DNA of 64,000 bases, taken from the IMG/VR virus record IMGVR_UViG_3300038393_002131. One strand, 5' to 3'. This document shows positions 3,967 through 34,132 of this stretch, piece by piece. The first letter of the stretch is position 1; each line of letters begins with the position of its first letter. Position numbers and translations under genes: made by a program. Source of the DNA: a virus (lineage: Duplodnaviria; Heunggongvirae; Uroviricota; Caudoviricetes). Below the pieces are notes generated by a model that was not told the origin of the DNA, did no database searches, and worked only from the letters and a program-made list of their open reading frames with translations.

Positions 3967-4058
3967 GGTGGCTCCTCAGTGTGTCTGGCCGGGACGCTCG
4001 TCCGGCTCTGCGAGTGACTTTAGCGGCTGTGCACGACAGTGGGGAAGGGTTCGACAGG
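3967..4058 (-). promoter_or_regulatory. promoter-leader cassette (TTCCCC-N18-TAAAGT; hairpin CCGGACGAGCGTCCCGG; GACACAC; GAGGAG)
   Basis: Read directly. Confidence 0.5.
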
Positions 4059-4955
4059 TCAGGCCGCGCCGAACAGGTCAAGGGCGTACTGCTTCGGGGT
4101 GCGCAGCGACGCCAGGACGTCCTCGCGCCACTGGACGGCGTACCGGAGGCAGTTGCGGCAGTCGCCACGGTGCGTGCATCCGGGCATCTTGATCTGCTCG
4201 CGGCGGGCCCCGTACGACCATGCGAGGGAGTCGGCCGAGACGAGGTTGTGGCCGTAGGAGGCGAGGCCCTGAGCCTTGACGCCGAACCCGTGGAGGCGCA
4301 GGCCGCGCGCGGCGAGCGTGCCGGTGATGAGGCCAATCTCGTCGGTGGACTGGCGGCGGCACACGGAGCCGAGGCCGACCAGCTGCTCGTCGGCGAGGTC
4401 GATGCCTGCGGCGGCGTACTGCTCGACGTGGGACAGGTAGTCGTCGAGGGTCCAGCCTTGGAGGACGGGCACCCACGGCGCGGCGGGGAAGTTCTCGCGC
4501 AGGTAGATCAGGTTCTCGATGGTCAGCTCTTGGTGGATCGCGACCGACAGGCCGGTGCCGGCGAACGTGTTGCCGTTCCACGTGCCGCCCGCGATGACGG
4601 CCGGCTCGCACATCCAGTCCTGCGGGGCGCACCACAGCGGGACCGCGCCGTCCTCCATGAACCGGTAGACCATGCCGCCGTACTCGTCCTCGCTCATCGT
4701 CCAGCGGCCGTGCTGCTGCAGCTCGGTGAAGCCACCGGAGTCGAGCGCCCACGCGCACCGGCCCTTGGGGAAGTCGTCGCCCTGGCGGCGGTACTTGGCG
4801 AGGGTGCGGGCCGACACGAACAGCGGCACCGGGCTCGTCTCCATCCAGCGCGGCATGTGGCAGCCGGTGAAGAACAGGAGGTGGCGGGCCGGGTCGTCGC
4901 TCGCACGGTCGGTCGTCCAAGCCGTCTCGACCTCGCGCCACAGCTGCTCGTACAT
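4059..4955 (-). CDS. DpdA/tRNA-guanine-transglycosylase-like protein (putative DNA 7-deazaguanine transglycosylase)
   Basis: Start re-assigned to M41 (MYEQLW) with RBS GAAGGAG; ALDSGGF resembles the TGT catalytic TDSGGFQ motif; C-terminal Cys/His cluster PGCTHRGDCRNC resembles the TGT Zn site. Confidence 0.55.
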   Translation of the reverse strand: MYEQLWREVETAWTTDRASDDPARHLLFFTGCHMPRWMETSPVPLFVSARTLAKYRRQGDDFPKGRCAWALDSGGFTELQQHGRWTMSEDEYGGMVYRFMEDGAVPLWCAPQDWMCEPAVIAGGTWNGNTFAGTGLSVAIHQELTIENLIYLRENFPAAPWVPVLQGWTLDDYLSHVEQYAAAGIDLADEQLVGLGSVCRRQSTDEIGLITGTLAARGLRLHGFGVKAQGLASYGHNLVSADSLAWSYGARREQIKMPGCTHRGDCRNCLRYAVQWREDVLASLRTPKQYALDLFGAA

Positions 4956-5043
4956 GGGGGGCTCCTTCGGTGGTGTCGGCCCCGCGACGCTCGGCGGGGC
5001 ATGGCCCAACCATGCCGGGCCGGGCCGACGGTGGCAACGGTTC

Positions 5044-5079
5044 CCGGCATGGTGCGACCCCCGCGCCGGAGCCATGGCG
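5044..5079 (-). terminator. terminator after the small Lys-rich gene
   Basis: GCGACCCCCGCGCC / GGCGCGGGGGTCGC 14-bp stem. Confidence 0.5.
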
Positions 5080-6689: not shown

Positions 6690-6775
6690 GGGGATTCCCC
6701 TTCTCGGTGTGTCCTTGTCGGGGACGCTTGTCCCGACACCCCTGACTTTAGGGGCTGTGCACTACAGGGTCAATG
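6690..6775 (-). promoter_or_regulatory. promoter-leader cassette (TTGACC-N17-TAAAGT; hairpin GTCGGGACAAGCGTCCCCGAC; RBS GAGAAGGGG)
   Basis: Read directly; closest match to the sigma-70/SigA-type consensus. Confidence 0.6.
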
Positions 6776-6884
6776 GTTCGCGTGTCGGCGAGTCACGGCA
6801 CCGGCACGGGGCCGGCAGGTGAGGCGGTCAGCCACACCCACACGACCCCGGCCAGCACAGACAGGGCAACGGCCTGCCAGACCT

Positions 6885-11727: not shown

Positions 11728-11799
11728 GGGGTGGCTCCTTCGTTCGTGTCGGTGCCGGGGACGCTGTCCCGGCTGGTGATGCTGAGTTTGGAGCGGGTC

Positions 11800-15692: not shown

Positions 15693-15782
15693 GGGGATGC
15701 CCCTTCTGTGTGTCGCGGGCCGGGACGCTTCCGACCCCCTGTGAGGGACTTTAGCGGCTGTGCACTAGCAGGGCAAGGGTTG
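15693..15782 (-). promoter_or_regulatory. type example of the reiterated early promoter-leader cassette
   Basis: Minus sense: TGA-CAACCCTTGCCC(-35)-N17-TAAAGT(-10)-...GGTCGGAAGCGTCCCGGCC hairpin-CGCGACACACAGAAGGGGCATCCCC-ATG. Confidence 0.6.
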
Positions 15783-17445: not shown

Positions 17446-17506
17446 GGGGTGTCGGTCCTGCTTTCGTGTCGTGGCCGGGGACGCTTCCCGGCCGGTGAAA
17501 CGGACA
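17446..17506 (-). promoter_or_regulatory. promoter-leader cassette of the LysM gene (TTGTGT-N17-TAATGT; hairpin CCGGGAAGCGTCCCCGG)
   Basis: Read directly. Confidence 0.5.
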
Positions 17507-22807: not shown

Positions 22808-22899
22808 GGGGATGCCCCTCTTGTGTGTCGTGGCCGGGGACGCTTTCCCAGCCGGTGACCCGACGTTAGCAGATGTGCACTACTGGTGGAAGGGTTGGG
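22808..22899 (-). promoter_or_regulatory. promoter-leader cassette (TTCCAC-N17-TAACGT; hairpin with AAAGCGTC loop)
   Basis: Read directly. Confidence 0.5.
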
Positions 22900-32631: not shown

Positions 32632-33636
32632 TCAGGTGCGGGCCTTGATGTAGGCGACCATGTCGTTCCACCGCTGCACGTCGGCGGTGTTCGTCGACAG
32701 GATGCTGGAAAGGTCGTGGCCGCGGTCGGCGGCGACGACGGTCTTGTGCTCCTGGCCCGCCTTCGTCAGCCAGTAGTCGGTGGCGGTGAGCGCGGACACC
32801 GGTTCGACGCCGTCGTTCTCGCCCTTGATCGCGTAGATGGCGGGCTTGTTGGCGCCGTAGTACGTCTCGGGCTTGAAGCTCGTCCACTTGCCGCCGCACA
32901 TCGACCACGTCGGCTCGTAGGAGCAGCCGATGGTGGAGGTCATGTACCCGAAGGACTTGACCATGGTCGGCGTCGACGGGTCGCCGGTGTTGTAGCCGAG
33001 GACGATGTCGGCGGTGCGGTGCGGCTGCAGGACGGCGCCGACAGACGCGGCGACGGTGACGCTGTTGTAGAAGCCAGCGCCGAGGGTCACCAAGTGCCCG
33101 CCGGCCGAGTGGCCGAACGCTGCGACGCGGGTCGAGGATGACCCGAACTGTGCCGCGTTGGTCTTGAGCCACTGGATCGCGAGCTCGGTGTCGATGCGCT
33201 GCGCCGGCCAGCGGTCGCCGGGGTTGACAGTGCCGGAGCCGTCCGGGCGGTACTGGTCGGCGGCGAGGCGGTAGTCGATGTTGTAGACGACGAACCCGGC
33301 TGCGAAGAACTTCTGCGCGACCTGCGTGATGGTCGACTCGGTGCGGTAGGAGTTGTGCCACCAGCCGCCGTGCACGACGACGATCGCGGGGTGGGTGCCG
33401 GGTGCCCAATCGGCGTCGTAGTAGACGTCGCCGACTTGGTCCTCGGGGCTCGAGGTGCCGTACTGGTAGGTGGCGACGGTGGTGCCGTCGCTGAGGGCCT
33501 TGATGATCCGCTTCGGGGAGGTGGCTGTCGGGGTGGCCGCGCCGGTCGCGGGTGCCGTCAGCACGATCGCGGCGACGGTGGCGAGGATAGCGACGAGGGC
33601 CGCGAGGATGGACGTGCGGCGACTTCGAGAGCTCAT
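32632..33636 (-). CDS. secreted alpha/beta-hydrolase esterase/lipase (Tat-type signal)
   Basis: Start re-assigned to MSSRSRRTSILAALVAILATVAA (RR signal) with a leader hairpin at ~33660-33685; HGGG-type oxyanion motif VVHGGWW and nucleophile elbow GHSAGG. Confidence 0.7.
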   Translation of the reverse strand: MSSRSRRTSILAALVAILATVAAIVLTAPATGAATPTATSPKRIIKALSDGTTVATYQYGTSSPEDQVGDVYYDADWAPGTHPAIVVVHGGWWHNSYRTESTITQVAQKFFAAGFVVYNIDYRLAADQYRPDGSGTVNPGDRWPAQRIDTELAIQWLKTNAAQFGSSSTRVAAFGHSAGGHLVTLGAGFYNSVTVAASVGAVLQPHRTADIVLGYNTGDPSTPTMVKSFGYMTSTIGCSYEPTWSMCGGKWTSFKPETYYGANKPAIYAIKGENDGVEPVSALTATDYWLTKAGQEHKTVVAADRGHDLSSILSTNTADVQRWNDMVAYIKART

Positions 33637-33716
33637 GACGTGGGTGTTCTTTCTGCTGGGCGCCCGGGACGGTGAGTGTCCGATTCGGGCGTGGTGGATG
33701 GATTTGAGCATGAAAG

Positions 33717-33808
33717 GGCCCGCAGCTGTCCGCGACCCGCGGGATTTGAACCCGCGCGCCCCTTCGCGGAAAGAGGCATGCCTACCTGGCCGTCAGCTGC
33801 GGGCCCAA
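33717..33808 (-). other. tRNA-like structured element (T-arm-like GGTTCAAATCC hairpin inside a 13-bp stem); not a canonical tRNA
   Basis: Minus-sense CGCGGGTTCAAATCCCGCG hairpin, AGGCATGCCT palindrome and outer GGGCCCGCAGCTG/CAGCTGCGGGCCC stem; no acceptor, D or anticodon arms could be fitted. Confidence 0.3.
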
Positions 33809-33835
33809 TGACGGGGACCTTGGCCGGGTAGGAGT

Positions 33836-33853
33836 CGTTGTGTCGCGTCCTCA
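33836..33853 (+). repeat. class-II motif copy (overlaps the stop of 33851..34132)
   Basis: CGTTGTGTCGCGTCCTCA. Confidence 0.55.
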
Positions 33854-34132
33854 GCCGACGGGCTCCCACTCGCTGCGCACGACCCACGCCCGGAACTGGC
33901 CGTGCCACGCGTCCGGGCTCGGGCAGAGGTACGGGTTGCAGTGCATGAGCATCGGCGGGAATCCGAGGCTGCTCGTCTCGAGGTGGCCCCAGCCGCGGTC
34001 GAGGCGGACCTTGACGCCCGTGGCGGCGACGGCCCGCGCCCACTCGGGCGCGCCGAGCGCGGCGTGCACCTCGGCCATGGCGGCGTTGATCTCGGCCGGC
34101 GTCATGACGGTTGTGTCAGTGAGCGTCGCCAC
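33851..34132 (-). CDS. hypothetical protein (93 aa)
   Basis: Its stop is embedded in the class-II motif TGAGGACGCGACACAACG. Confidence 0.4.
   Translation of the reverse strand: MATLTDTTVMTPAEINAAMAEVHAALGAPEWARAVAATGVKVRLDRGWGHLETSSLGFPPMLMHCNPYLCPSPDAWHGQFRAWVVRSEWEPVG

Follow-up and report, generated by a model that had tools for sequence, protein, structure and literature searches.

What is the structured sequence that separates an esterase gene from its upstream neighbour in a 64,000-nucleotide (nt) stretch of a Caudoviricetes virus (IMG/VR record IMGVR_UViG_3300038393_002131; hereafter the window)? A sequence-only reading had described a tRNA-like element at 33712-33853, built around a T-arm mimic, and had offered three identities for it: the 3′ part of a host tRNA gene carried as an attP-type core, a degenerate tRNA, or a structured RNA. 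The last of these is strongly supported by a family of homologues, a covarying fold and evidence for the strand. Judged by sequence and covariance-model searches, the element is a member of a new RNA family within the structured phage leader RNAs, one that matches no Rfam 15 family.

Fold, strand and family of the element

The structured element occupies 91 nt on the minus strand (33716-33806), not 92 as first counted, and consists of a closing helix P1, a junction strand J, hairpins P4 and P5, and a pseudoknot. Every sequence feature that had been named is present on this strand, including the T-arm-like hairpin CGCGGG-TTCAAAT-CCCGCG (33738-33756) and the perfect 13-bp outer stem, GGGCCCGCAGCTG with CAGCTGCGGGCCC, whose coordinates need a shift of one base; a search of the window returned exactly these two copies of the stem strands (33794-33806 and 33716-33728). 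Besides the element, the range originally given covers GACGCGACACA, an upstream repeat motif at 33839-33849, together with the stop codon (33851-33853) that ends the upstream open reading frame (ORF). The palindrome AGGCATGCCT (33774-33783; AGGCAUGCCU) exists, but the 'hairpin' is palindromic in the window copy only: in relatives its halves fall in different parts of the fold, with GGCAU belonging to the junction and GCC... to the P4 5′ strand. Read from 33806 to 33716, the RNA is GGGCCCGCAGCUG A CGGCC AGGUA GGCAU GCCUCUU UCCGCG AAGGGGC G CGCGGG UUCAAAU CCCGCG GGU CGCGGA CAGCUGCGGGCCC, with the following parts.

33794-33806, minus: P1 5′ strand GGGCCCGCAGCUG, perfectly paired with 33716-33728; 13 of 13 pairs covary among the 31 distinct members
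33778-33793, minus: junction J, A-CGGCC-AGGUA-GGCAU; CGGCC and GGCAU are (near-)invariant family-wide, the middle 5 nt variable
33758-33777, minus: hairpin P4, made of GCCUCUU (33771-33777), the loop UCCGCG (33765-33770) and AAGGGGC (33758-33764); compensatory changes between U-A and G-C, and G.U pairs valid on the minus strand only
33738-33756, minus: hairpin P5, formerly the 'T-arm', made of CGCGGG, the loop UUCAAAU (33744-33750) and CCCGCG
33729-33735, minus: pseudoknot 3′ strand (U)CGCGGA, whose partner is the P4 loop UCCGCG (and A43)
33716-33728, minus: P1 3′ strand CAGCUGCGGGCCC, directly abutting the pseudoknot 3′ strand

The fold is thus a P1 helix around an H-type pseudoknot, formed by P4 and a loop-to-tail helix; the long loop of the pseudoknot holds P5. 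In the model-fitted alignment of 35 sequences (A7), pairing is kept in 93.9% of cells, and at 19 of 31 pairs both partners change; none of 500 shuffles reaches the observed values, and partners that are slid along the sequence are 39-53% paired. The sequence of P1 has no conservation at all across the family. P5 shows compensatory changes at 4 of 6 pairs, with 100% of its cells paired, and in P4 two pairs covary and many others alternate between G.U and G-C. Among the four closest variants (the window and contigs L001, L029 and L056), all helix differences keep pairing, and four pairs change on both sides.

The pseudoknot helix between the P4 loop and the 3′ tail, 6-8 bp long, is found in 31 of 31 distinct members. 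It occurs in four sequence versions, with shuffle probabilities of 0.004-0.05 per version, and the window version has a variant in L056.

Window group: P4 loop UCCGCGA, tail UCGCGGA
L056: P4 loop UCCGUGA, tail UCGCGGA, with one U.G pair
Main group: P4 loop UUGCGAG, tail CUCGCAG or CUCGCAA
Second subgroup: P4 loop UAGCGAG, tail CUCGCUG
Third subgroup (13-nt loop): P4 loop CAGCGAG, tail CUCGCUG

In addition, an ungapped alignment of ten main-group sequences (A9) has the pseudoknot helix 100% paired, with UA in six sequences and AU in four at one pair. In the junction strand N-CGGCC-N5-GGCAU, a 3-bp helix P3 (GCC/GGC) is possible: RNAalifold proposes it, no covariation occurs there, and the copy on an S. 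anulatus plasmid extends it to GGCC-AUGA-GGCC. An acceptor-like helix 'P2' (CGGCC/GGUCG) was rejected: in 27 of 31 members it would contain a C x C mismatch, and the bases of its 3′ strand are those that form the pseudoknot.

P1, P4 and the pseudoknot all contain G.U pairs, A.C pairs are absent, and the models score 105-110 bits on the forward strand versus 20-29 bits on the reverse. Since G.U pairs are valid on one strand only, these observations place the fold on gene-sense (minus) strand RNA. The same evidence bears on the idea that the inverted repeats work as a DNA site, such as an operator, a pac or partition site, or an origin structure. ParB-like and TerS-like genes adjoin, several palindromes lie within the element (GGGCCC, CAGCTG and GCATGC, with CCGCGG in relatives), and P4 and P5 are conserved in sequence beyond what pairing requires. 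However, a site in duplex DNA needs no compensation, whereas here 19 pairs change on both sides with pairing kept; the one-sided validity of the G.U pairs, the unconserved sequence of P1 and the loop-to-tail pseudoknot, which would be meaningless in duplex DNA, likewise make a DNA site decidedly improbable.

A relative of the esterase (55% protein identity) is encoded on viral contig L001, which has the same element in the same place, and two more variants are found on L029, a metagenome contig, and L056, a Logan assembly. Among these close copies the element is 81-98% identical, the esterase genes 67-85% and the remaining leader 46-72%, a contrast that marks the element as strongly selected. 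By its capsid protein (60% identity), the closest cultured phage is Streptomyces phage Gilgamesh (129 kb), whose 49-102 kb region is syntenic with the window from the capsid gene to a DpdA-like gene (window 4059-5075). A covariance model of the four variants has one match in Gilgamesh (33.7 bits, E ~1e-4), in a 400-bp gap just upstream of the ParB-like gene 84, where P1 is wholly different yet paired. A degenerate pattern built from the columns common to the four variants and Gilgamesh returned 31 IMG/VR loci, and the rebuilt model R2 matches 31 of 31 full-length, at 50-82 bits. R2 also matches the window, L001, L029, L056 and Gilgamesh, for a range of 50-110 bits over all of them. The window copy scores 105-109 bits with covariance models R1 and R2 and is homologous to 34 other loci; the family comprises 35 loci, with at least 31 distinct sequences.

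Outside this family, matches are absent or weak. A BLASTN comparison with 50,697 phage records gave no match, either for the region itself or for the 8 kb surrounding it, and exact-pattern scans with window strings recovered the closest relatives only, most other matches being chance ones inside genes. At gathering scores, Rfam 15 has no match in the window (C4, YrlA/Y RNA, mascRNA and small ribozymes included). At permissive thresholds, the highest-scoring match across the element is to Plastid-ycf2, in antisense orientation (14.9 bits, gathering 65.7, E 3.8), and the top same-strand match is to mascRNA (14.4 bits, gathering 42.5, E 5); no match of the Gilgamesh leader exceeds 20.9 bits (gathering 75). 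A literature search found no description of the motif, which a catalogue of 10,006 csRNAs built from IMG/VR could list.

The T-loop hairpin and the tRNA question

The loop of P5 reads U-N-N-R-A-N-U in 31 of 31 distinct members, above an invariant G-C closing pair, in agreement with the T-loop terminal-loop consensus (YNNRA)NY, which takes the form UUCRA in tRNA (10.1101/2022.12.26.521914). In the FMN and cobalamin riboswitches the T-loops are UGNRA, with U at position 7 in most (10.1101/2022.12.26.521914). The window loop is of the tRNA type, (UUCAA)AU, and those of the closest relatives L001, L029 and L056 are of the FMN/cobalamin type, (UGUAA)CU. The occurrence of UGUAACU in all three was the first sign that the resemblance to tRNA is local to this window. 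P5 shares with the T-loops of tRNA and of the two riboswitches a 7-nt loop, U1, a purine at position 4, A5, U7 and the G-C closing pair, but nothing else of those RNAs is present in the element. The T-loop motif is common to tRNA, RNase P, and FMN and cobalamin riboswitches, and serves as a docking module in many RNAs. On its sequence, P5 is a genuine T-loop hairpin that carries no implication of tRNA descent; the junction strand CGGCC-N5-GGCAU offers candidate donors for a base that a receptor would insert between positions 4 and 5 of the T-loop.

Could the element nevertheless derive from tRNA, as a degenerate gene or as a host tRNA 3′ part retained as an attP core? The window copy carries the exact GGTTCAAATCC T-arm consensus, and GGTTCRAATCC has a single occurrence in the window, against a chance expectation of 0.02 copies; 2 of 100 shuffles contain one. 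Esterase homologues of two low-GC phages directly follow a genuine tRNA-Glu(CUC), and Gilgamesh encodes tyrosine integrases. However, ARAGORN run on the 64-kb window finds no tRNA gene, which bears out the original observation that no cloverleaf fits, and finds none in Gilgamesh; the Rfam tRNA model has no match, either at its gathering score or at E<=10. There is no acceptor stem with a free 7-nt anticodon loop: the P4 loop (6 nt) lies fully in the pseudoknot, and the segment following the T-like arm, the would-be acceptor strand, pairs with that loop and has no acceptor role. The 13-bp outer stem is a covarying helix and no tRNA feature. The T-loop sequence itself varies among homologues, the spelling GTTCRANYC being kept only in the window (UUCAAAU) and two loci (UUCAAGU). 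Other P5 loops are UGUAACU (closest relatives), UUGAAGU, UAGGAGU, UAGAAGU, UUAGAGU and UACGAGU. The GTTCAAATC loop is specific to the window lineage.

The attachment-site version fares no better. As had been stated, the window holds no integrase, among ORFs of at least 190 amino acids (aa) scanned with PHROGs or Pfam; this is uninformative in itself, because the window spans a part of the genome that is without the integrase genes of its relative Gilgamesh. In Gilgamesh, tyrosine integrase genes lie at 1.8-2.8 kb and 18.5-19.6 kb and the element at 79.86 kb, 60-78 kb apart, and adjacency of the element to an integrase is seen neither there nor among the scanned window ORFs. Furthermore, 185,579 species genomes, scanned with the element's 5′ half only, contain no copy, and a 21-mer of the T-arm and 3′ segment has no match in the viral contigs scanned. 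By these comparisons the tRNA and attP reading, to which we give hardly any probability, appears already close to refuted, an attP core being very unlikely in view of the pseudoknot and of homologues whose loops are not tRNA-like. For annotation, the lesson is that a perfect GTTCAAATC hairpin alone is no evidence for a tRNA or an attachment site.

The tRNA-Glu(CUC) genes beside esterase homologues (L052 2264-2335 and L054 2345-2416) are genuine, are followed by a strong sigma-70 promoter and belong to low-GC, tRNA-rich phages. Descent of the element from these tRNAs was rejected: models R1 and R2 miss them, and it is the esterase, not the element, that they accompany. Their position beside it probably reflects chance.

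Gene context and predicted promoter

In the window, the element sits between the stop codon of a 93-aa ORF (33851-33853) and the esterase ATG (33636), and the genes around it are all on the minus strand. Its immediate surroundings are as follows.

33839-33852, minus: repeat motif GAGGACGCGACACA, formerly the 'class-II motif', holding a −35-like CGACAC at 33840-33845
33817-33822, minus: −10-like hexamer CAAGGT, 17 nt after CGACAC
33637-33715, minus: remainder of the leader, from the element to the esterase start codon; poorly conserved
32632-33636, minus: gene for a secreted alpha/beta-hydrolase (BD-FAE esterase; Pfam PF20434, E 6e-23), the first downstream gene

The gene order of the Gilgamesh-like loci is element, ParB-like gene (start codon ~30-45 nt on), TerS-like gene, variable genes, lysin A and SSB. 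In 30 such loci a divergent gp83-like gene lies upstream, at ~270-400 nt in most and up to ~1.9 kb in a few. The element is upstream of the ParB-like gene in every main-group locus having that side. In the window lineage the esterase is inserted between the two, in the window itself together with SPFH and small ORFs, and there the ParB-like gene has a promoter motif of its own, a second copy with a plain hairpin after it. An esterase-specific leader was rejected, as the esterase is absent from this place in 30 relatives and esterase homologues elsewhere are without the element. The ParB-like genes of Microbacterium phages, with upstream gaps of 10-20 nt, also lack it.

The esterase product (334 aa) is identical to P0001 and occurs on nine metagenome contigs of up to 134 kb. 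As read from the sequence, its start codon lies at 33636 (ATG) and leads into a signal peptide. A program-made ORF of 359 aa (32632-33711) belongs to a frame that crosses the element without a stop after a UGA in P1. The idea that the element codes for protein was rejected, as the differences from copy to copy are mostly non-synonymous in that frame.

R2 confirms the element on three circular Streptomyces plasmids (126-132 kb) at 56-71 bits, and BLAST adds four, giving seven circular Streptomyces plasmids of 125-132 kb (NZ_CP107934, CP108533, CP109288, NZ_CP108441, NZ_CP107821, NZ_CP070374 and NZ_CP122459). It is single-copy per genome. Given these plasmids and the synteny between the window and Gilgamesh, members of this phage group are, on genomic grounds, phage-plasmids, and the probable host of the window phage is Streptomyces or a close relative.

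The motif upstream of the element, whose presence had been noted, is a repeat, GAGGACGCGACACAAGC, with nine intergenic gene-strand copies in the window (minus strand, first bases 63413, 58391, 56025, 55319, 54573, 44316, 33849, 30777 and 23355) and the consensus (t)GAG-GRCGCGACACA-AGC. In 9 of 9 copies CGACAC is followed, after 16-17 nt, by an NANNNT (CAnnnT-type) hexamer, a recurrence very unlikely by chance with A = 0.13 and T = 0.17 (this strand's complement). The copy at 33849 is kept in L001 and L029 at an identical 32-nt spacing, and in Gilgamesh and its relatives the motif recurs ~120 nt upstream of the element, there with TACNTT as the equally spaced hexamer. We infer that the motif is a phage-specific promoter family, with a predicted transcript start near 33808-33810, ~3 nt before P1. 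In the rest of the leader (33637-33715), no terminator and no sigma-70 consensus were found.

Other promoter-like features were seen in the window and its relatives. Several motif copies lie close to start codons without a visible ribosome-binding site (RBS) and may yield leaderless messages. A 35-nt repeat has five copies on the minus strand (1089-1123, 4016-4050, 6744-6778, 15747-15781 and 22862-22896) and reads, on the gene strand, TTGACC, 17 nt, TAAAGT, a sigma-70-type promoter; these repeats probably drive early genes of the right arm. A further repeated unit, found just before start codons on the minus strand, combines a G+C-rich hairpin, CGACAC and an RBS (for example 11737-11779, 17457-17499, 22816-22858, 1993-2053 and 4945-5005). 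In L001 (2614-2781) and L029 (~330-480), a small conserved CxxC ORF (...CPLFHDATQTPPIRKGA(R/P)RWARS*) runs through the promoter motif; the upstream ORF of the window is unrelated to it and stops 45 nt earlier.

Readings of function

With moderate confidence, we infer that the element is a cis-acting leader RNA module of a new family that binds a ligand or a protein, because a covarying closing helix surrounds a near-invariant, pseudoknotted T-loop core at a short distance from the start codon. The element RNA would be transcribed on the minus strand, in a 5′ leader made from the repeated phage-specific promoter, and the transcript would encode the ParB-like, TerS-like, lysin and SSB proteins in related Streptomyces phage-plasmids, with the esterase first in the window. 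There, the element would serve as a cis recognition module for a small ligand or a protein, its folded or bound state setting how much downstream message is made, kept or translated. In the window, a fold beginning ~3 nt from the predicted 5′ end should also shield the message from 5′-end-dependent decay. A conserved core with a covarying P1 closing helix, in a leader that the predicted promoter would define, is the arrangement of a riboswitch. Covarying pseudoknotted leader RNAs are the usual start for new riboswitches, ribozymes and protein-binding operators, and to our knowledge very few structured leader RNAs of such a kind are known in actinophages.

Several observations weigh against a cis-acting leader module. 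The alignment behind the covariation counts, being fitted to the model, is biased towards the structure. In the main group the helix sequences of P4 and P5 are near-invariant beyond the needs of pairing, which is unusual for a plain aptamer and could reflect a protein partner, alternative pairings or catalysis. No expression platform is apparent across the subgroups, neither a conserved terminator nor a conserved helix that would mask the Shine-Dalgarno sequence. In Gilgamesh the P1 3′ strand seemed a good candidate for such masking, an idea that was dropped because the pairing is not kept in other subgroups. The RNA itself is a prediction, like its promoter and its start. Finally, the CxxC ORF of L001 and L029 stops at a UGA formed by U12, G13 and A14 of the element, inside P1, so part of the RNA population there would be read by ribosomes up to the element.

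The closest structural parallel is the preQ1-II riboswitch, a three-stem H-type pseudoknot, which is likewise a 5′ leader with a highly conserved core, pairing between a hairpin loop and the 3′ tail, and an embedded extra hairpin; in the element the start codon lies 30-45 nt on in most members. Unlike the preQ1-II type, the element has a long extra closing helix, P1, and its Shine-Dalgarno sequence lies outside the pseudoknot; there is no sequence or model match between the element and preQ1, SAM-II/V, fluoride or other Rfam riboswitches. A more specific proposal, which we regard as doubtful, is that the element forms the aptamer of a riboswitch, or is a small ribozyme, of a new class and gates the ParB-like/TerS-like/lysin/SSB operon of Streptomyces phage-plasmids. 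Were it true, a metabolite or cellular signal sensed by RNA would help decide when a plasmid-prophage commits to virions. The element precedes genes that a phage-plasmid must silence during its plasmid life, and this makes it a plausible control point for the switch to virion production. The family is experimentally accessible, through the cultured phage Gilgamesh (Streptomyces lividans) and sequenced Streptomyces strains that bear the plasmids. A weak match to the c-di-GMP-II-GCG riboswitch model (minus 33849-33923; 24 bits, gathering 47.9, E 0.067) lies inside the upstream ORF and is probably due to chance.

Self-cleavage by a ribozyme of a new class would process the polycistronic transcript before the lytic and packaging genes. 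Small ribozyme classes often occur in phage DNA, and a pseudoknotted core with nucleotides that are near-invariant even within helices, an outer stem that varies freely, and the intercistronic place of the element in L001 and L029 would suit such an RNA. However, no hammerhead, twister, twister-sister, pistol, hatchet or HDV-like match was obtained at E<=10, and the CUGA of the window is not kept across the family, so a self-cleaving element seems improbable.

Alternatively, a nuclease such as RNase P, or RNase III acting within P1, may release the element from the leader to act in trans as a stable small RNA, either in immunity as an antisense RNA or as a decoy for tRNA-binding factors. The c4 and CI immunity/antisense RNAs of phages P1 and P4 are encoded in the leaders of the operons they control and are matured by RNase P. 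By analogy with these RNAs (Rfam C4), the element may be viewed as a small folded leader RNA of the lytic or anti-immunity operon of a plasmid-living phage: its hosts are phage-plasmids, it lies in the leader of lytic genes, its 13-bp stem continues into the pseudoknot helix to give a compact fold, and it carries a T-loop hairpin. Unlike c4 and CI, it has no match to the C4 model, or to any other family, and no complementary target sites for the exposed loop were found to be conserved (by eye only). It also has no free acceptor-like end, and a translated ORF overlaps it in L001 and L029. We therefore consider a trans-acting small RNA unlikely. A Y RNA identity was rejected as well, no Ro60 (TROVE) match being found with PHROGs or Pfam on the scanned window ORFs.

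The element can also be compared with the tRNA-like structures of plant RNA viruses, which stack a pseudoknotted acceptor arm on a T-arm: in the element, a pseudoknot helix of 6-7 bp stands directly after the 3′ strand of a T-loop hairpin. If the two helices stack, as we suppose, the resulting ~12-13 bp would equal the length of a tRNA acceptor plus T-arm. In contrast to the viral structures, the element is internal to a messenger RNA leader without a free 3′ CCA end, its pseudoknot partner is the loop of the hairpin preceding the T-like arm, and it belongs to a DNA phage; aminoacylation is not conceivable without processing.

Between the promoter motif and the element, the Gilgamesh-like loci keep two further hairpins that are absent from the window lineage (L063 29775-29855; Gilgamesh 79,774-79,854), one with a GACGUC loop region and the other with a CAUCCGGAACGA loop, and these may form part of a larger leader structure.

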